Below, piece by piece: positions 1 to 45,774 of a stretch of 45,774 nucleotides of DNA (positions are counted from its first letter, which is position 1; each line of letters opens with the position of its first letter). The notes under the pieces are model-generated. The model had not been told where the DNA came from, ran no database searches, and saw nothing but the letters and a program-made list of their open reading frames with translations. The stretch is from a phage: the sequence record PZ349761.1; one strand, 5' to 3'. The translations under genes were made by a program, and so were the position numbers.

Positions 1-480
1 CCATACAAGTTGATTTTGATTCTGGCTGGGATCGTTTTGCGCATACGCGTTATAAAAGTTATGCCGTGTGGATGAAATCACCCTCCGCAGGAATCGCGTA
101 CGTCTATAACGCAGAATTACGCAATGGTTACATAATAATATCTATATATATCAACCATTTAGTAATATTATTATTATTATTATTATATACGTGTATATAG
201 TGTAGATAGTGGATATTGGATATTGCGATAGTTTTCTATGATTTTTTCCTACACTTGTAGGAATGGTATTACATTGTAGGAATAAATAGGCATATATGGC
301 CCAATTCACCATGAAAGCTGGTGTACAAGCTGTACACGATTTTACATTGAGCTATATCTGGGGTTTGGAGCTGAAAAGCGTAAATAAATTGAATACAACC
401 ATAAATAACACTTGATAACATGTAACCTCAATGATATTATGCACCCATCTTAACGAGAGCAACCAATCAGGAGTATATCT
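1..480. repeat. AT-rich noncoding control region with (TTA)6 microsatellite (167-187), iteron-like short repeats (190-235), CCTACA-ct-TGTAGG palindrome (250-263) and ACGCGT-core palindromes (45-50, 95-100)
   Basis: No credible ORF; about 90 bp (115-200) is a direct repeat of 27207-27295. Confidence 0.6.
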
Positions 481-1002
481 ATGTCAAATCGCATTCAACC
501 AGTAAGCCTTGGTGATGTTATCCGCTACATGGCTAAGCAGGCACTTAAGGCCGACAACAGGACTTTTCATGTTCCAATAAATCTTATAGCTCGCCAGGTT
601 TACGGGCTAACGTCTGATGATATGGGCCGAATCAGCGCTGAAGATCTCGAGGCTGGCGGCAAATACAGTTTGGCAAAGTTGAAGGCTTCATATGTCTCTA
701 ACACAGTTGCCAGGATGTCAGAGATTCAGGAGGCGAACGTTCGGGCTAAGCTGTCAATCAAGGACGGCGACTTCGGTGATGATGTTGACGTTCGATGCGC
801 ATACATCACATTGGTTGATGGGGCAATACAGACAGGAAAGAGAGTTAAGGCCAATAATCAGGTTGCTGAGAATGCGGTGAGCGACTTCAAGGATAGAATC
901 CTTAAGCTAATGCCATCAGTTACTGATCTTGAAGGTGATGAGATTACAGGAGCCATCAAGGCAATCAAGATGTACCAGGAAATGATTAAGGAGGCAAAAT
1001 AA
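481..1002 (+). CDS. hypothetical protein (173 aa)
   Basis: Complete ORF directly after the control region; stop overlaps next start; no recognisable motif. Confidence 0.5.
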   Translation: MSNRIQPVSLGDVIRYMAKQALKADNRTFHVPINLIARQVYGLTSDDMGRISAEDLEAGGKYSLAKLKASYVSNTVARMSEIQEANVRAKLSIKDGDFGDDVDVRCAYITLVDGAIQTGKRVKANNQVAENAVSDFKDRILKLMPSVTDLEGDEITGAIKAIKMYQEMIKEAK

Positions 1003-7164: not shown

Positions 7165-8730
7165 ATGTCTTTAGTGTGGGAAGAAATGACCATTCAGGAA
7201 AAGATGGCTGTCAAAGCGATATCAGAGCATAGCTTCGAGGGTTTTCTGCGCTGCTGGTTCCAAATAACACAAGGTGAGCGATACATCCCTAACTGGCATC
7301 ACAAGTACTTGTGCAGAATCATTGACGAGATTATCGCAGGGGAACGCAAGGACACCATCATTAACATAGCTCCGGGCAGCGGAAAGACGGAAATCACATC
7401 AATTCACTTCCCTGTATACTCTATGTTGAAGCTGAAGAAGGTTCGAAACCTTAATATCTCTTTCGCCGACTCAAACGTAAAGCGCAACTCAAAACGAGTG
7501 CGTGACTTAATATCATCAAAGGAGTTCCAGGAACTCTGGCCTTGCAAGTTCGGGACAAATAAGGATGACGAGATTCAGATCGTTGACGACAGCGGAAAGG
7601 TTAGATTCGAGTCCATATCAGCATCAAAAGGAGGCAGGATTACTGGCACGCGTGGTGGTTATATCACCGACACATACAGCGGCGCGGTAATGCTGGATGA
7701 CTTCGATAAACCAGACGAGATGTTTTCATCCGTATACAGGGCAAAGAGTCACACGCTGCTTGGCAATACCATTCGCTCACGCCGCGCTAGCTCGGTAAAA
7801 GGGAAGGCAACTCCAATTATCCAGATTCAGCAGCGACTTCACGTCAATGACTCAACGTGGTTCATGCTTAGCGGTGGTATGGGCATTGATTTTGATTTGG
7901 TGAAGATACCAGCACTGGTTACTGAAGATTACGTTGATACATTACCTGACTGGATTAAACAGCAATTCATTGATGACGTATTATCAAGCGAAAATATCGA
8001 GCGTGACGGAGTGAAGTATTACAGCTACTTCCCAGGGAAAGAGTCCGTGCATGACCTGGTTGCGATGTGGGATAGTGACCCGTACACATTCCTTAGCCAG
8101 TATCAACAAGAACCTGTAGCATTGGGCGGAAATCTTATTAACGTAGACTGGTTCCAGCGTCTTAGTGATACATTCAGGCCTCCAGTTAAGTATGATTACA
8201 GATTCATCACATGCGATACCGCGATGACTACAAAGAGTTATAGTGACTTCTCTGTACTTCAGTTGTGGGGATACAAGGATGCTAAGATTTACCTGATAGA
8301 CCAGCTCAGAGGAAAATGGGAAGCGCCGGAGTTGGAGGCTGAACTACTGGACTTCGAGAAGAAATCAAGGGCAACCAGTCAATCAGATGGCATACTCCGA
8401 AAGATCATCATCGAGAAGAAAGCCTCTGGTATCGGCCTGATTCAATCGGCAGGTAGAGTTATGCGAACACCGATAGAGCCATACGTTCCGGATAACGACA
8501 AGCTGACTCGCGTAATGAGCGCATTGCCACAGATTAAGGCTGGTAATGTCGTTCTTCCAGAGTCTGCGCCGTGGCTAAACGGATTGCTTACTGAGGTTGC
8601 TGCTTTTACGGCAGATGATAGCCACAAACACGACGACCAGATTGACTGTCTAACAATGGCAGTAAACCTTGTACTTAACATTGCGGACGACCCAAAAGCG
8701 CGACTAATGCGCATAGCGGGAATTAAATAG
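7165..8730 (+). CDS. terminase large subunit
   Basis: 521 aa; P-loop-like APGSGKTE near N-terminus, acidic nuclease-type C-terminal half; canonical position before portal. Confidence 0.85.
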   Translation: MSLVWEEMTIQEKMAVKAISEHSFEGFLRCWFQITQGERYIPNWHHKYLCRIIDEIIAGERKDTIINIAPGSGKTEITSIHFPVYSMLKLKKVRNLNISFADSNVKRNSKRVRDLISSKEFQELWPCKFGTNKDDEIQIVDDSGKVRFESISASKGGRITGTRGGYITDTYSGAVMLDDFDKPDEMFSSVYRAKSHTLLGNTIRSRRASSVKGKATPIIQIQQRLHVNDSTWFMLSGGMGIDFDLVKIPALVTEDYVDTLPDWIKQQFIDDVLSSENIERDGVKYYSYFPGKESVHDLVAMWDSDPYTFLSQYQQEPVALGGNLINVDWFQRLSDTFRPPVKYDYRFITCDTAMTTKSYSDFSVLQLWGYKDAKIYLIDQLRGKWEAPELEAELLDFEKKSRATSQSDGILRKIIIEKKASGIGLIQSAGRVMRTPIEPYVPDNDKLTRVMSALPQIKAGNVVLPESAPWLNGLLTEVAAFTADDSHKHDDQIDCLTMAVNLVLNIADDPKARLMRIAGIK

Positions 8731-8744
8731 CACGAATTGCTAAA
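8727..8744 (+). promoter_or_regulatory. conserved palindromic box ATAGCACgaattGCTAAA
   Basis: TAG stop of terminase gene inside box; TATAGT 8765-8770; leader CACACCAACGAGAGG; ATG 8802. Confidence 0.6.
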
Positions 8745-21788: not shown

Positions 21789-22341
21789 TATTAAGTTAGG
21801 ATTATCACTAGGCCGTAAATTTGGAAAGATTCACCAAATGGCAGTGAGTAGCGTGCCAGAGGCAATGCGAGCGCTGTGTTCACAGATTCCTGCTTTCAAG
21901 GAGTTCATGAATAGCCATGTCGGTCAGAACACAAAGTACGCCGTGTTCGTTGATGGCAAAAATGTGAACGAGCATAGAATCTCTGATTTTAGTGCCGTTC
22001 AGGAGATACGCATCTTACCAATCCCTCAAGGTCGCAAGTCCGGCGGGTTGTTTCAGACAATTTTAGGCGCCGCGCTTATCGTGGTTGGTTACTTCACTGG
22101 CCAGATTTATCTTGTTGGGGCTGGTATATCGCTAGCGGCTGGCGGCGTTGCGCAGCTACTTTCACCACAGGCAACAGGATTGAAGACTCAGAGCAACCAA
22201 ACAAGCAACAGGGCATCATACGCATTCGGCTCAGCCGTAAACACAGTGGCTGCTGGTTATCCAGTTTGTCTTCCGTATGGATATCGAACGGTTGGCGGTT
22301 CTGTGTTTAGTGCGGGTTCATATAGTGAAGACATTGCTTAA
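21769..22341 (+). CDS. tail assembly protein (gpI-like)
   Basis: 190 aa with hydrophobic Gly-rich segment; between K and J. Confidence 0.5.
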   Translation: MTQKLIDIKLGLSLGRKFGKIHQMAVSSVPEAMRALCSQIPAFKEFMNSHVGQNTKYAVFVDGKNVNEHRISDFSAVQEIRILPIPQGRKSGGLFQTILGAALIVVGYFTGQIYLVGAGISLAAGGVAQLLSPQATGLKTQSNQTSNRASYAFGSAVNTVAAGYPVCLPYGYRTVGGSVFSAGSYSEDIA

Positions 22342-22349
22342 ATATCATA

Positions 22350-22370
22350 CCCGCCTAGTGCGGGTTTTTT
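22350..22370 (+). terminator. rho-independent terminator
   Basis: CCCGC-ctagt-GCGGG hairpin plus T6. Confidence 0.7.
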
Positions 22371-22382
22371 ATTTAGTGTAGA

Positions 22383-27047: not shown

Positions 27048-27095
27048 TTTGTATTCCTCATTAAGTTGTTTCGTTTCGATGGAGTAATAGTACAA

Positions 27096-27593
27096 CCGTC
27101 TAGCCTGAATGTCTTTAGCTATTCGTGCTAATGTTTACGCGTAACCGATGTAACTCGATGTATACAATCTCATCCGCGGAAAATGATATACGCACTGTTA
27201 CGCCAACTTACGCATTTGTTACATTAAAATATCTATATATATCAACCTTTTACTCTTATTATTATTATTATATATATTACTGTGTATATCATGTAACTAC
27301 TTCTATAGAGTGTTCCGGTTATAATTTTAATATCATGTGATTTTATACAGTATTGCACGGCAGCTATACCAATGCACCATCAGCAATAAATGATATACAC
27401 GATATACACGCCGGTTACATTGAGCTATAGATGGGCTGAGATGCCAAAAAACGTAACTAATGGCAATGCCTACACGGAATTACAAGGATTTACGCGTAAA
27501 CTTAAATCAACGATTGGCAAAACCAATTGGACTGGCTACGGTGCTGAATATATAGTTACCTCATCGAAATCAAAAAACCAGAGAGATACATAA
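27096..27593. repeat. second AT-rich repeat-laden control region: (TTA)5 at about 27256-27271, TTTACGCGTAAA palindromes (27134-27144, 27489-27500), GATATACAC direct repeat (27400-27418)
   Basis: 27207-27295 is a roughly 85 percent identical direct repeat of 115-200; track ORFs here look spurious. Confidence 0.6.
27114..27132 (-). promoter_or_regulatory. conserved box variant (minus strand reads ATTAGCACgaataGCTAAA)
   Basis: Downstream on minus strand: TACTAT, CCATCGAAACGAAAC (27071-27082), ATG 27047. Confidence 0.55.
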
Positions 27594-27788
27594 ATGACCT
27601 ACTACATTATCAAAGAGAAAAACAACGCACTGTTCGGCGACTGCTACTTTGGAGGTGAAGCCGGTTACACTACAGATAAAAATGAGGCAGACCGATTCGA
27701 AACTAAAGAAGATGCCAAATCTTTACTGATCGGATACTTTACAGAGGAAGAGTTGAAGTCTATTAAGATTGTTAAGGTTAAGGAGTGA
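27594..27788 (+). CDS. hypothetical small protein (64 aa)
   Basis: ORF preceded by TTGGAC-N18-TATAGT and leader CCTCATCGAAATC. Confidence 0.45.
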   Translation: MTYYIIKEKNNALFGDCYFGGEAGYTTDKNEADRFETKEDAKSLLIGYFTEEELKSIKIVKVKE

Positions 27789-28923: not shown

Positions 28924-29388
28924 ATGAACAAAGATAGCTGGCAGACTCCTTTAGAGTTATTCAAACAACTAGATGATAAATACAATTTTGAGGTTGACGT
29001 ATGCGCCAGTCCAGACAATGCTCTTTGTGAATATTTTTGGACTGAAGATGATGACTGCCTACAACAGGACTGGGGTGATGGCAACGGTTTCGTCTGGTGT
29101 AATCCTCCATATAGCAATCCATTGCCATTTGTCGAAAAGTGCCAAGAATATGGTTATGCAGTCATGCTATTGAATCAGGACACATCAACAAAATGGGCTA
29201 AGGTAGTCTTTGAGAAAGCTTCAAAGGTTATACTTTTATCAGATAGGGTTAGGTTTATAAATCCATTAACATTGGAGGTTGGAAAGTCAAACCCTAAATG
29301 TCAGATGATTGTGGTTTTCGACAAGCTCAGTAACCCTGGTGTTGATATGCGCTGGTGCTCAATAAAGGATATTCATAAGCACATATAA
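28924..29388 (+). CDS. dam: DNA N6-adenine methyltransferase (phage Dam-type)
   Basis: Catalytic motif IV NPPY present as WCNPPYS; small single-domain size typical of phage Dam. Confidence 0.75.
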   Translation: MNKDSWQTPLELFKQLDDKYNFEVDVCASPDNALCEYFWTEDDDCLQQDWGDGNGFVWCNPPYSNPLPFVEKCQEYGYAVMLLNQDTSTKWAKVVFEKASKVILLSDRVRFINPLTLEVGKSNPKCQMIVVFDKLSNPGVDMRWCSIKDIHKHI

Positions 29389-29406
29389 ATAGCACGAATT
29401 GCTAAA
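29389..29406 (+). promoter_or_regulatory. conserved palindromic box ATAGCACgaattGCTAAA
   Basis: Directly after TAA stop of dam; hairpin GGGGTA..TACCCC, TATGAT 29427-29432, leader CCATAAACAACGAACGAGG, ATG 29462. Confidence 0.6.
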
Positions 29407-33222: not shown

Positions 33223-33240
33223 ATAGCACGAATTGCTAAA
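33223..33240 (+). promoter_or_regulatory. conserved palindromic box ATAGCACgaattGCTAAA with no plus-strand gene downstream
   Basis: Lies about 24 nt upstream of the minus-strand tail fibre ATG and lacks the downstream -10 and leader. Confidence 0.5.
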
Positions 33241-34268: not shown

Positions 34269-34748
34269 TCAAATCGTGCTGTTTTTCTCTTTCTTCTTCT
34301 GGTTCTCTAATTTAATTTTGCGCCAGGAGCGACATTCAGGCTTTGTGGCTAGTTCAGCCTCAGTAACTACGCGCAGCATGTGACGTTTTTTGCAACGAAG
34401 CGTCAATGGCTTTCCGTTACCGTCGAATTGCAGGTCTGGCCTGCAGAATGTAGCGCGAAAACCTTCTCCATTTCGCTTATAGTAGTTGTGCGAAAGTTGA
34501 GCTCCACGTGCAGAAATCATACCACGCTTAAACCATTCCTCTACAGCCTGTGGCGTTACCTTTAACTGCTTCGCTATATTCGCCTTTGTGCCGAAGAAAT
34601 CAAGAACCATCTCCAGCCGTGCTCGTAAGCCAGCCCTTACTTCATCTTTTAATACGTAGTAGCCTGAAGGTCGTTTACGTTGTTTTTTGTCTTTGGTGCG
34701 GACGGTTCCGTTATTACCGTTAATTGTTCGTTTGTCGACTGAACTCAT
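34269..34748 (-). CDS. putative HTH DNA-binding protein (transcriptional regulator candidate)
   Basis: Basic N-terminus, helix-turn-helix-like IAKQLKVTPQAVEEWFKRG; first gene of minus operon at a divergent control region. Confidence 0.5.
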   Translation of the reverse strand: MSSVDKRTINGNNGTVRTKDKKQRKRPSGYYVLKDEVRAGLRARLEMVLDFFGTKANIAKQLKVTPQAVEEWFKRGMISARGAQLSHNYYKRNGEGFRATFCRPDLQFDGNGKPLTLRCKKRHMLRVVTEAELATKPECRSWRKIKLENQKKKEKNSTI

Positions 34749-36844: not shown

Positions 36845-37260
36845 AGATTACAGATAAAGAAGATTACATTGAGTTTTACCCTGGTCCGGTTAAGTCATGC
36901 CCTAAAGAGGATGACGAACAAATCTTTTGCTCTGATTGGGTTAAGTATAACTACCCAGATATGGTATTTTTCCATTGCGTGAATGAGGGAAAGAAAACCA
37001 TTGGTCAAGCAAGAAAAGACCAGGCTAAGGGGCTTCTAAAAGGCGTATCAGACTGTATGTTTCTTATTCCTGAATCACTTCGAGGTAAGTATCCTTTCGG
37101 AGCTATAGAGCTAAAGAGGGCTGGCAAAACTCAAGCAAGTCCAGTCAGCGAAGAACAGAAGGCATTCCTGAAAAGTGTAATGGAATCAGGCGGTTTCTCG
37201 GCAGTCGCCTACGGACGCGAGGGTTTTCTGGCAGCATTTAAAGAAATGATTTCAAAATAG
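36841..37260 (+). CDS. VRR-NUC-type nuclease domain protein
   Basis: D..E.K pattern (SDCMF..GAIELKRAGK); ATGA overlap with helicase. Confidence 0.55.
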   Translation: MKITDKEDYIEFYPGPVKSCPKEDDEQIFCSDWVKYNYPDMVFFHCVNEGKKTIGQARKDQAKGLLKGVSDCMFLIPESLRGKYPFGAIELKRAGKTQASPVSEEQKAFLKSVMESGGFSAVAYGREGFLAAFKEMISK

Positions 37261-39084: not shown

Positions 39085-40215
39085 ATGGCAACCGCAAAAA
39101 TCACCAACGAACAATTGCGCGAAGAGTTAGCAAATGGCATGACCAACAAGGCAATCGCAGAGAAGTACGGAATGAACATTCGCAACGTTGAATTGCGTCG
39201 CAGTAAATTAGCTAAACAAGGCGAAGGGCATGGTCGCGATGTAAGCAACTTAATCCCTCAGGGCTATGCAGTTAAAGGCGTCTCCAGCTTAATTGGTGCT
39301 GATGGCGAGATTAAGCAACAGTGGGTTAAATCAGATATCGACAAGGAGAAGCAAGAAGAGATGATGCTTCAGGCAATTCAGGCCCTAACTGATGAGTTGC
39401 CGCGTGAGAAAGTTAAAGCCTTAAGGGTTGGTTTGTTTGAGGACACTTTAAGCCTTTACCCCGTATTCGACCTTCACATTGGCGCAATGGCTCATCATGC
39501 TGAGTGCGGAGAGAATTATAGCACCGAAATCGCTGAACGAGTCCTTAATGACTACTTTGATTATGCGGTTGCAAAAGCCCCTAACTCAAAGAGGGCTGTA
39601 TTGCTGATTGGTGGTGACTTCCTTCACTCTGACGGAATGGAAGCTGTAACTCCAACGAGTAGACATATTCTTGACCAAGATAGCCGCTATCACAAACTTG
39701 TTTACGTAGCAGTGCGAGCAACTCGCCGAGCAATTAGTAGAATGCTTGATAAGCACGCCGAGGTTGAAGTTCAGATTATCCCAGGAAATCACGATCTCTC
39801 AGGTATGATTTGGCTTCGTGCTGCAATGGCAGCTTTCTATATGGATGAGCCTCGAGTTAGTGTTGATACGTCCCCAGCTGCGCTTCACGTAACGCAATTT
39901 GGGAAGACGCTGCTTGGTTACTGCCATGGGCACGAACTCAAAAAGCCTGATACACGACTATCAGCACTGGCTCGTGACCATCGAAAAGCATTTGGTGAAT
40001 CAGAGTATGTTTACACCCATTCAGGCCACTACCACCATCAAACTATTACGGAAGGAAATCTGGGTATTGATGAATCACACGGCCAGCTTGGAGCGAAAGA
40101 TGCGTACAGTGCTAACGGAGGTTATCGCTCTTACCGACAGGCTTCGGTGATAATTTATAGTCCTGAGTTTGGTGAGATTGGACGATTTACTTGCCGACCT
40201 GAAATGTTTAGTTAA
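39085..40215 (+). CDS. calcineurin-like metallophosphoesterase with N-terminal HTH-like domain
   Basis: Ordered motifs DLHIG, GGDFLHSDG, PGNHDL, CHGHE, HSGHYHH match the metallophosphatase signature; N-terminus has helix-turn-helix-like NKAIAEKYGMNIRNV. Confidence 0.6.
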   Translation: MATAKITNEQLREELANGMTNKAIAEKYGMNIRNVELRRSKLAKQGEGHGRDVSNLIPQGYAVKGVSSLIGADGEIKQQWVKSDIDKEKQEEMMLQAIQALTDELPREKVKALRVGLFEDTLSLYPVFDLHIGAMAHHAECGENYSTEIAERVLNDYFDYAVAKAPNSKRAVLLIGGDFLHSDGMEAVTPTSRHILDQDSRYHKLVYVAVRATRRAISRMLDKHAEVEVQIIPGNHDLSGMIWLRAAMAAFYMDEPRVSVDTSPAALHVTQFGKTLLGYCHGHELKKPDTRLSALARDHRKAFGESEYVYTHSGHYHHQTITEGNLGIDESHGQLGAKDAYSANGGYRSYRQASVIIYSPEFGEIGRFTCRPEMFS

Positions 40216-42116: not shown

Positions 42117-43700
42117 TCACCCCAGCAATCTCGGATTAATGTAAACTTTATCACCAATCAGGCACGTATAGTTTTTCTCATCAAGCATTGGCAGTAAGTG
42201 ATCTTTAATCTTCGTCATCACTCCAGCCTGAGCCTCGAACGGCTTAACCTTTCGCGCCGCTTCATACAGTGAACGAATACCAACTACGCCTTTACCGTTC
42301 TTACCTTGCTTGATTAGTATATCAATCAACTTGTTCATCTCGGCATTGTCTCCAGCGTGACCGGCGGCGTTAGCGGATGACAGGTAAGTCTTGCTAAGTT
42401 CCTGGAAGATAATGACGGCTTCTTGCATCGTATCTAACTCAATTTCTCTCGACTTCTGCGGACTACCACCGTTAGGGTTGAACCAGTTACGCACAGTGTG
42501 AAGTACCGCTGCAATCCTTATTGCCTGTTTATCAAACTTACCCAAAGCGCCGCGCAACATTGTGTGTGAATACTTTCCTCCGTCAGCAAGGTGAGGCTCC
42601 ATCTCCTGGCGTGCTCGGTTGAGATATTTCATTGCAGAGTTACTCACTGTCAGCTTAACATCTTGCTCATTCATTATTTCGTGAACCAAGCGGAAGTAGT
42701 CAGCCTTCAGGCCACCATCAATTGGCTCGTATGTTGAATCTCCATTCTCATCAACAAAAACACGCTCACCCAGGAATGACTTCTCGCGTACAAGCAGAAA
42801 ACGTTCCGACACGCCGATTCCACGAGCGCCCGCGTTCATGATCGCATTTATTGTTTCATCCTGCGCAATTACCGAGATGCAACCCATAGCAACGAAGCTC
42901 ATGTTGTTCTCTGCGTTTGCACGCGCGATAGATACGTTACCCGCATCCCATGCCTTCAGTACAAGCTCGCTGTTCGTTTTCTTTGAGCCATCACCATAGG
43001 TCATGCCCAGAAGTGAGTTCACGCTCGTTGCCTCGTCAGAGATAACAGCGAAGTTTCCCTGGCGATTGTTGATTCTGGCTAGACCTTCAGGTGTTGTATC
43101 GGACACGGGGAATACTATGTCACAAAGTTTCTCTAGCTTTTCCTCAAGTTCCTCTTTCTCCTCAAAAAGTGAGGCCATCTCTGATGGTGACTTTTCCTGC
43201 TTCATCTCCTTGGATAATGCAGATAGTTTAGCCATTATTTTCTTGCGCTCGCGCTTTCGCACTTCATTAAGCCGCTCAGTCTCAGCGATCATTGGAGCAA
43301 TAGAAAGTGAGTTGATTGCTGATTTACCAGTCGATGGCGGCTGGCTTGTTACGACGTACAGCGAGGTTGGTTGCTGAGTCCCGTGATATTCAACAGTAAA
43401 TCGTCCAAGCATGGCGGCAGAAATACACCCCAGAAAGTGCATGTATGCGGATGACTCTGGAAACTGGACCGAACGAGCAATATTGGCTGAAAGTTTGCCA
43501 ACAACATCAATATCATTACCGAGTGAGATTACTGGATACTTGTCATTTGCCGCATCAATCTCGACAGGAGCTTTCCAGAATGATTGAGACTGACGATAGC
43601 CATTAGCATTAATAGCCACTCGCAGGGGTGGGAGGTTGTCTGCGGCAGCAATTGCCATAACCTGTTCAACAGATAGTTTATCTTCGTTGAAATCAAACAT
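42117..43700 (-). CDS. P-loop NTPase of unknown function (full-length paralogue of 1002-1532)
   Basis: Walker A-like PPSTGKS; N- and C-terminal segments shared with the 176-aa protein at 1002-1532. Confidence 0.6.
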   Translation of the reverse strand: MFDFNEDKLSVEQVMAIAAADNLPPLRVAINANGYRQSQSFWKAPVEIDAANDKYPVISLGNDIDVVGKLSANIARSVQFPESSAYMHFLGCISAAMLGRFTVEYHGTQQPTSLYVVTSQPPSTGKSAINSLSIAPMIAETERLNEVRKRERKKIMAKLSALSKEMKQEKSPSEMASLFEEKEELEEKLEKLCDIVFPVSDTTPEGLARINNRQGNFAVISDEATSVNSLLGMTYGDGSKKTNSELVLKAWDAGNVSIARANAENNMSFVAMGCISVIAQDETINAIMNAGARGIGVSERFLLVREKSFLGERVFVDENGDSTYEPIDGGLKADYFRLVHEIMNEQDVKLTVSNSAMKYLNRARQEMEPHLADGGKYSHTMLRGALGKFDKQAIRIAAVLHTVRNWFNPNGGSPQKSREIELDTMQEAVIIFQELSKTYLSSANAAGHAGDNAEMNKLIDILIKQGKNGKGVVGIRSLYEAARKVKPFEAQAGVMTKIKDHLLPMLDEKNYTCLIGDKVYINPRLLG

Positions 43701-45374: not shown

Positions 45375-45554
45375 TCAAATAAATGGCAGACATTCGGCGC
45401 AGCCAAGTCCATCGCAGCACAGGAATTCATCTTCTGACTGGAGTTGCTTGGCTAAGTCTATATCCAACTTTCCGCGCAACACAAAGTTAGTGTAATCTTC
45501 GTTAAGCCCAATCAGTGCGCATTCGTGGCGTAACTCATCTTTATCAATCTTCAT
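45375..45554 (-). CDS. small Cys-rich protein (59 aa)
   Basis: ORF directly downstream of minus-strand cassette; CCDGLGCAEC cluster. Confidence 0.4.
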   Translation of the reverse strand: MKIDKDELRHECALIGLNEDYTNFVLRGKLDIDLAKQLQSEDEFLCCDGLGCAECLPFI

Positions 45555-45607
45555 ATCTATCTCCTCGTTTTGATGAGTTAACTATATCCTCCATGACCAC
45601 TAATGTC

Positions 45608-45625
45608 TTTAGCAAAAAGTGCTAT
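45608..45625 (-). promoter_or_regulatory. conserved palindromic box (minus strand reads ATAGCACtttttGCTAAA)
   Basis: Minus strand downstream: TATAGT, CATCAAAACGAGGAG, ATG 45554. Confidence 0.55.
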
Positions 45626-45774
45626 TCGTTAGATTTATGTATTGTTGCAGATATTGCAATGATTCTCATGACTATTGCACATATAGCAATATTGCTTCAG
45701 ATGCAATGATGTTTTTGATTGTTGCGAAAAGTGAAATGAAGTTGGGAGTGAGCGAATGAAAGATGGATGGACTA

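Follow-up and report, generated by a model that had tools for sequence, protein, structure and literature searches.

The virulent pac-type Bacillus siphovirus SPP1 has two related, distant origins, oriL and oriR, in which short boxes lie beside an AT-rich region. The boxes are bound by the initiator gp38, and oriL is located inside the gp38 gene. The satellite phage P4 has two cis sites, ori and crr, that contain the same short repeats, iterons with the form of TGTTCACC octamers; crr by itself plays no part in unwinding. In the P4 replication protein, primase and helicase are joined to an origin-binding winged-helix domain at the C terminus. The lambda origin and the origins of iteron plasmids contain repeats, a bend site, and an AT-rich unwinding tract, and flanking transcription is thought to aid their opening. 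The primary and secondary origins of T7 and oriF and oriG of T4 consist of a promoter plus an AT-rich unwinding element; they occur at several sites, including sites near the genome ends, and operate without a dedicated initiator. Paralogous operator regions at two early operons are also a known arrangement. T1 belongs to the seven classical T phages; phages of its type often contaminate laboratories and fermenters and are candidates for therapy. To our knowledge, their replication origin, early promoters, and exact pac signal have not been defined. We found no replication origin or transcription-start data in the literature on T1-like phages, and a 2024 re-annotation of TLS found no origin-type repeats and no lambda-type iterons in T1-like genomes.

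The window analyzed here, the whole of record PZ349761.1 (45,774 nt), is a complete Rtp-like Drexlerviridae genome from a T1-like coliphage. Its first 2 kb are ~90% identical to the Rtp-like coliphages Msk/OzMSK, FP, and JulesPiccard, and each of two intergenic queries matched 78–135 Drexlerviridae records. Because positions 45685–45774 are identical to nt 1–90 in both the Rtp and OzMSK records, the 45,774 nt represent the whole genome in another circular permutation. Rtp and T1 share its gene order: small genes, tRNA-Arg, terminase, head and tail genes, minus-strand cor, and recE-dam-erf-ssb, followed by tail fibre, primase and HTH protein (minus), SF2 helicase, lysis genes, and a minus-strand block that includes a DUF3987 helicase. 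Positions 1–480 are the right portion of a ~700-bp divergent intergenic region that wraps around to 45555–45774; the last minus-strand gene starts at 45554, with a copy of the family 21-nt repeat (45608–45625) and TATAGT upstream of it. The initial annotation could see neither the circular continuity of positions 1–480 with the genome end nor the identity of nt 1 as a packaging terminus. The anatomy of this junction was compared in 16 genomes of the Braunvirinae and Nouzillyvirus.

The results support the assignment of positions 1–480 as a non-coding cis-acting control region. The region is modular, with a pac cut zone (1 to ~20), a cis element (41–390), and the promoter, Shine-Dalgarno sequence, and start of gene 1 (412–483). 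The initial annotation had read it as an AT-rich candidate origin or early regulatory hub with no credible open reading frame (ORF), and that reading is partly supported. The AT-richness is beyond chance, the GC content being 0.346 as compared to 0.443 genome-wide, in the lowest 0.5% of 480-nt windows. The cis control region and the origin-type layout were borne out, and a strong predicted promoter for gene 1 is present; the repeats at 190–235 that had been cited in its favor proved to be partly lineage-specific. Sequence comparison establishes a conserved, duplicated cis element that appears to act at the DNA level, with an origin-type layout, between predicted divergent promoters and beside the pac end. 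Features of this element and its surroundings are given in Table 1.

Table 1. Coordinates of features in and around the two copies of the element
Feature	Position	Strand	Remarks
pac cleavage zone, start of rightward headful packaging	1–20	+	nt 1 = Msk nt 36862; SU57 start = nt ~19
Copy A, duplicated non-coding element	41–390		Paralogue of 27133–27460
Conserved block CATACGCGTTAT	43–53		16-genome comparison
Four phased hexamers GTACGT, TAACGC, TTACGC, TTACAT	98–133	+	xAC triplets at 99, 108, 118, 129
Least stable duplex segment of the genome, candidate DNA unwinding element	123–190		Includes (TTA)6 at 168–185
Perfect IHF consensus TATCAACCATTTA	149–161	+	Within conserved AATATCTATATATATCAACCATTTA
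Two TGTAnATAG repeats, 9 nt apart	192–209	+	TGTA fixed at both sites in every A and B copy
GATATTG x3.6 tandem repeat, lineage-specific	205–230	+	TRF period 7, score 36 (below default)
Palindrome TTCCTACA-ct-TGTAGGAA plus second TGTAGGAAT	246–283		Arms 246–253/256–263
TGTACA x2 (322, 331) and block TTTACATTGAGCTATATCTGGG common to copy B	322–362	+	A/B comparison
Conserved block TTTACATTGAGCTATA	341–356		16-genome comparison
Predicted sigma-70 promoter TTGATA-17-TATTAT, upstream TG	412–440	+	Drives gene 1 (DUF7174) and gene 2
Shine-Dalgarno AGGAG and ATG of gene 1	469–483	+	Gene 1 = 481–1002
Leftward 21-nt repeat abutting copy B	27114–27131	−	Repeat scan
Copy B	27133–27460		Between cor (minus strand) and recE operon
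Predicted copy-B proximal promoter TGGACT-17-TATAGT	27528–27556	+	Drives two small genes, recE, dam; weight-matrix rank 18
Cro/YdaS-like HTH protein	34269–34748	−	Possible phage regulator
DUF3987 (MCM-like) replicative helicase, 527 aa, C-terminal winged helix	42117–43700	−	Candidate element binder (inferred)
Leftward promoter-type element, last minus-strand operon	45581–45631	−	21-nt repeat ATAGCACTTTTTGCTAAA (45608–45625) and TATAGT
TTGCA-type motif array	45640–45726		Candidate terminase recognition part of pac; contiguous with 1–480 on the circular map

When compared with the described systems, the locus resembles SPP1 in having two far-apart related sites, each with short repeats and an AT-rich region. 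In contrast to SPP1, both copies here are intergenic, there is no sequence similarity to the SPP1 origins, and only SPP1 has a known initiator. As in P4, there are two cis sites with the same repeats, and a phage helicase ends in a winged helix; here, however, the DUF3987/MCM-like helicase is separate from the primase, and its binding to the element is putative. The order of repeats, bend site, and AT tract is that of lambda and the iteron plasmids, but the repeats are 6-mers 9–11 nt apart instead of 17–22-bp iterons, there are no DnaA boxes, and the element lies outside an initiator gene. With T7 and T4 the locus shares a virulent phage host, a promoter with an AT-rich element, and multiple sites, including one near an end. 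In T7 and T4, the promoter reads into the AT tract. The strong promoters of the present locus point away from the tract, and the matches that run through it are only moderate.

The direct repeat that had been noticed at 27.2 kb is real and is larger than claimed. Pairwise alignment of 1–500 with 27080–27620 gave 74% mean column identity between copies A and B, with homology from ~41 to 390 and from 27133 to 27460; identity was 78% for 104–204 versus 27195–27295 and 76% for 342–387 versus 27415–27460. A profile search found exactly two copies of the core in the genome (E 1e-31 and 2e-29). No core was found in the E. coli genomes or plasmids searched, and species-representative genomes (GTDB) yielded chance matches only, plus one T1-like contaminant contig. 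That contig, NZ_VSMK01000220.1 (46,669 bp, in the "Nitratidesulfovibrio liaohensis XJ01" assembly), matches the core pattern twice and is the size of a T1-like genome; phage contamination is its probable source.

Conservation differed between the copies. The ~220 nt from 27133 to 27355 were almost invariant in 15 genomes, the whole-genome DNA identity of these relatives to this genome being ~85–92% (measured for three genomes). In a ranking of conservation relative to Rtp, Msk, and T145P1, copy B fell in the 98.7th percentile, within the top 1–2% of the genome, and copy A as a whole in the 27th–34th percentile. The initial annotation had named a poorly conserved spacer as the finding that would refute its reading; what we found was a moderately conserved copy A with invariant islands and a highly conserved copy B. 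When 13 A-type and 7 B-type sequences were aligned together, the invariant columns comprised the TAC hexamers, GTTACA, AATATC, AACCnTTTA, (ATT)4, and the two TGTA repeats. Because copy B and its own leftward 21-nt repeat are immediate neighbours, copy A looks like the same module with a pac unit of ~185 nt inserted between repeat and element. Several relatives have 0.8–1.25 kb of extra DNA between cor and copy B (at genome positions ~27095–27135); the insertions sit just to the left of the conserved element and mark a hotspot at the module boundary.

The better-conserved phased repeats within the element are the TAC-type hexamers, which are spaced 9–11 nt apart and conserved in all A and B copies; in copy B the TAC triplets start at 27189, 27199, 27209, and 27220. 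T1 has AATTACGCC twice, 10 nt apart, adjoining its AT tract. These direct repeats at helical phasing, present in both copies, form a putative initiator-binding array. Perfect IHF consensus sites occur three times in the genome, and two of the three are the homologous sites in A and B; the consensus core of copy A varies in some relatives. The adjacent (TTA)6 run, originally placed at 167–187, is perfect and lies at 168–185 (TRF: 166–186, period 3, 7 copies, 100%). Because the (ATT)4 core within (TTA)4–6 was invariant in all 16 A-type and 15 B-type sequences aligned, the run is not a hypervariable microsatellite.

Other repeats required more correction. The two TGTAnATAG copies co-vary within genomes, and TRF reported 184–216 (period 9, 3.6 copies, score 43) below its default score. 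The GATATTG repeats are present in this genome, Msk, JulesPiccard, FP, and the Nouzillyvirus group, with some copies altered, and are replaced by other sequence in Rtp, G8, ES, IME542, RobRod40, and the T145P1 group. Thus, the tandem short repeats at 190–235 that had been called iterons are present, but they are detected by TRF only below default score and are partly lineage-specific, and the better-conserved phased repeats lie elsewhere, at 98–133. The CCTACA-ct-TGTAGG palindrome and its second copy are both real but occupy 246–283, not 250–287; TTGTAGGAAT is found at 255–264 and again at 274–283. The palindrome has undergone a compensatory two-position change to CTGACA..TGTCAG in T145P1 and in relatives' contigs of 44219 and 48262 bp, and both copy B and the Rtp/G8/ES/IME542 group lack it. 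It is probably a copy-A-specific site for a dimeric protein. An ACGCGT palindrome is present at 45–50, as claimed; its supposed counterpart at 95–100 reads CGCGTA and is the inverted partner of TACGCG at 44–49. By eye only, some of the repeats gave an impression of LexA- and OmpR-like sequences.

Duplex stability was determined from nearest-neighbour free energies with window sizes of 30, 60, 100, and 200 nt. At all four sizes, the segment in copy A (123–190; z 4.5–5.5) ranked first for instability in the genome, and the segment in copy B (27213–27280) ranked second, with z values of 4.2–5.5 for the two copies together. In T1, Rtp, Msk, and T145P1, the top two places likewise went to the syntenic loci (z 4.3–5.9, with third place at 3.8 or less). 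T1 retains this two-locus instability although its sequence is barely alignable to the core. An AT-rich candidate unwinding element therefore adjoins the repeats in each copy, the two copies being the two least stable duplexes in five genomes.

Several simpler accounts of the element were rejected. The small ORFs in 1–480, two of which are annotated in OzMSK, are not conserved; the four longest contain stops or frameshifts in most of 15 relatives, consistent with the original statement that no ORF was credible. The only long ORF in copy B is broken by a 1-nt length difference in the T145P1 repeat tract. A structured RNA was also rejected, since the conserved core of copy B had fold z values of only 0.06 and 0.79 relative to shuffles. 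An Rfam scan of the genome found tRNA only. There was one weak Trp_leader match at 22287–22373 (29.4 bits, with a gathering score of 41; E 0.048), which overlaps a terminator-like hairpin and is probably spurious. A DnaA/oriC-type origin was rejected because neither A nor B has a perfect DnaA box and there is no GATC cluster: 69 DnaA boxes were found genome-wide versus 107 expected, and GATC occurs once in 1–480 (30–33) and not at all in the copy-B core. In the genome as a whole GATC is depleted (68 sites versus 168 expected), despite a phage Dam-type methyltransferase (dam, 28924–29388). A switch in GC-skew sign, proposed as a check on the origin, is present at this region. The change at the genome junction tracks the switch in gene orientation, with coding-strand skew ~+0.1 everywhere; because the two switches coincide, the skew is uninformative and does not provide independent evidence for an origin.

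Considering these results together, we propose that the two copies form a pair of origin-type sites for unwinding and assembly, each set between divergent promoters, and we assign this reading a probability of roughly 0.4. Protein binding, unwinding, and initiation are the steps that we infer for the element. An array of protein bound to the four phased TAC-type hexamers would line one face of the helix, next to a bend that IHF introduces at its consensus site. Opening would occur at the neighbouring (TTA)n/(TA)n tract, where the duplex is weaker than anywhere else in the genome, and would be aided by negative supercoiling from the divergent flanking promoters; the MCM-like DUF3987 helicase and a DnaG-type primase would then be loaded for host Pol III. 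Four observations put an origin role first: extreme instability throughout the family, phased repeats, an IHF site, and a copy B that hardly varies. Also counted in its favor were the limitation to two copies, their first and second places among the stability minima, the invariant columns, the non-coding and non-RNA character of the element, the divergent promoters, and the encoded helicase and primase. Counted against it were the lack of DnaA and GATC clusters, a skew that equals gene orientation, the low percentile of copy A, a position upstream of two repeat-less transcription units that fits a transcriptional role equally well, and the moderate promoter-like matches inside both cores.

The phage encodes proteins that could serve such an origin. 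The MCM-like SF6 replicative helicase family that includes DUF3987 has been reported to end in a winged helix. Two of the phage proteins are candidate initiators by predicted fold: the DUF3987 helicase, through its winged helix, and the Cro-like HTH protein. The primase matches the N-terminal half of the 667-position DNA primase profile phrog_510, which we infer to represent P4-alpha-type primase-helicases; the T1 record notes similarity to the prophage alpha replication protein and the phi-R73 primase.

On one side of each copy stands a repeat-type promoter reading leftward, and on the other a sigma-70 promoter reading rightward, both predicted. The match at 412–440 has 10 of 12 consensus bases, is conserved in relatives, is located 41 nt upstream of the ATG at 481, and ranked 2 among 92,686 sites in a weight-matrix scan; these features support its prediction as a strong promoter of gene 1. 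Directly upstream of the −35 hexamer of the copy-B promoter, and overlapping it, is a palindrome, ATTGG-CAAAA-CCAAT (27513–27527), which is kept in most relatives and may be an operator. Moderate promoter-like matches were found inside both cores, TTTAGT-17-TATTAT (158–186) in A and TTTACT-18-TATATT (27249–27278) in B. These matches read through the AT tract and ranked only 203 in A and 69 in B, whereas the strong promoters read away from it. In both copies the homologous moderate match shares bases with the IHF site and with the (TTA)n tract.

A 21-nt direct repeat of the T1 family, aaATAGCACnnnTTGnTAAAA, has been described for TLS, T1, and Rtp (PMC11447400). In this genome the repeat, ATAGCACnnnTTGnTAAA, occurs in 19 copies versus 0.56 expected (for example, at 1826–1843, 8727–8744, 29389–29406, and, on the minus strand, 45608–45625); a GC hairpin and a hexamer resembling TATAGT come after most copies. 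One copy, at 33223–33240, is on the plus strand between two minus-strand genes. None of the 19 copies lies in 1–480, the nearest being 45608–45625 (minus) and 1529 (plus). Like the element, the 21-nt repeat is a conserved intergenic non-coding repeat of this phage family; it differs in sequence and in number, 19 copies versus two copies of a ~350-bp element. It is missing upstream of exactly two operon starts, those downstream of A and B, which head the units {gene 1 DUF7174, gene 2} and {two small genes, recE, dam}.

An alternative explanation is that the duplicated element is the upstream regulatory module of two immediate-early promoters that lack the 21-nt repeat. It might act as an enhancer that depends on IHF, or as an array of operators for a phage regulator, of which the Cro-like HTH protein is an example, and would set the strength or timing of the two repeat-less units, as OL and OR do in lambda. 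We ranked this role a close second because the association with those two units is exclusive: no other operon start lacks the repeat, and the copies are located 50–350 nt upstream of these two. The explanation also gains from the second-best sigma-70 match at 412–440 and the eighteenth-best at the B-proximal promoter, from the IHF consensus, from the homologous moderate promoter match over the IHF site and (TTA)n in both copies, from the presence of a Cro/YdaS-like HTH protein, and from the precedent of paralogous operators at two early operons. However, in-core promoter matches are no commoner than in shuffles (3 found in 1–700 versus 2.9 expected), the phased repeats do not overlap the strong promoters, and near-invariance over 220 nt together with extreme family-wide instability exceeds what promoters usually need. 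We regard a regulatory module as a plausible, if tentative, explanation, and the origin and early-promoter-regulation readings are not mutually exclusive.

A more elaborate version of the origin reading involves gene 2 (1002–1532, +), which encodes a motor-less mini-paralogue of the DUF3987 helicase that lacks the ATPase core. The N-terminal 55 aa of the two proteins are 62% identical and their winged helices 57% identical. Because gene 2, although found in Msk, is absent from Rtp, T145P1, and T1, it is accessory. An AlphaFold model of the whole gene 2 protein was too poor to use (pLDDT 49), and a profile search of PDB sequences with this protein gave no match. According to this version, the phages of the T1 family would have a pair of paralogous origins, the first next to pac and the second next to the genes for recombination. 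Each would be opened at its (TTA)n/(TA)n tract by an array of DUF3987 winged helices bound to the phased TAC hexamers, with help from IHF and divergent transcription; in lineages such as this genome and Msk, the product of gene 2, which directly neighbours copy A, would compete for the sites and tune initiation. We consider it doubtful as a whole; if true, it would define an initiator-free, helicase-guided type of origin with a built-in decoy regulator.

Copy A lies close to the packaging terminus. Position 1 aligns to Msk nt 36862, the PhageTerm start of forward-strand headful packaging in that phage (p 1.6e-9; PMC8421802). The same analysis gave a single forward-strand terminus (PMC8421802), which maps to the copy A end and not to copy B. 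For SU57, the first base of the record was set at a PhageTerm end where coverage changes abruptly; several possible ends were reported. The record ends ...GGACTACCATACAAGTTGATTTTA, so that its start is nt ~19 of this genome. The T1 record opens with a 2.8-kb terminal repeat at the syntenic place. Because of these mapped Msk, SU57, and T1 ends, we conclude that 1–480 begins at the pac cut; thus the physical terminus of the first headful maps to the start of 1–480 on the published terminus data of relatives.

The best-conserved part of the whole junction is the leftward repeat plus the TTGCA array. The motifs of the array have a mirror-like order, ATTGTTGC, TGCAATGAT, TATTGCAC / GCAATATTGC, TGCAATGAT, ATTGTTGC, and are nearly invariant across the 16 genomes of Braunvirinae and Nouzillyvirus; the same motifs occur in T1 nt 1–55. 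The mapped terminus sits 30–130 nt downstream of the array, and the cut-site block (45755–25) is kept in the Braunvirinae and replaced in Nouzillyvirus. The array at 45640–45726 is a candidate for the terminase recognition site. The T1 left-end palindrome GTTGCATGGTGTGCAAC (T1 nt 1–17) has matches of 13/13 (39898–39910) and 14/15 (42840–42854) in the lambda P-Q interval, to which classical genetics assigned a start site for T1 packaging. These matches are not significant (E ~0.5), and this lambda "esp" lead for T1 packaging was rejected.

Could the AT-rich core of copy A itself be part of a terminase-recognised pac, with copy B a recombination-derived relic or a secondary packaging site? Copy A begins ~40 nt from the mapped terminus, an ATATA-repeat pac was once predicted in T1 (Wietzorrek 2006, as cited in PMC8421802), and PhageTerm gave several possible ends for SU57. 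Copy B, however, is the better conserved, yet the one forward terminus of Msk falls at copy A; it is the TTGCA array, missing from copy B, that is conserved next to the cut from genus to genus; and Nouzillyvirus keeps the core though its terminus block has been replaced. Because the better-conserved copy is not a terminus, we consider a packaging role for the AT-rich core unlikely. Least probable is a functionless AT-rich spacer, in which a slippage-prone microsatellite and chance repeats were duplicated by illegitimate recombination: the below-median conservation of 1–480 and the lineage-specific GATATTG repeats and palindrome would suit it, but it is already contradicted by the conservation data, namely the invariant islands shared by A and B across three taxa, the fixed (ATT)4 core, and the near-invariance of copy B, and by the same two-locus thermodynamic signature in T1.

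For the T1-like phages, the origin reading that we favor yields two precise, conserved, candidate origin sites per genome, set apart from both the terminus and the 21-nt repeats. If confirmed, these sites would make possible minimal replicons, rational engineering, and targeted inhibition of the T1-like family.
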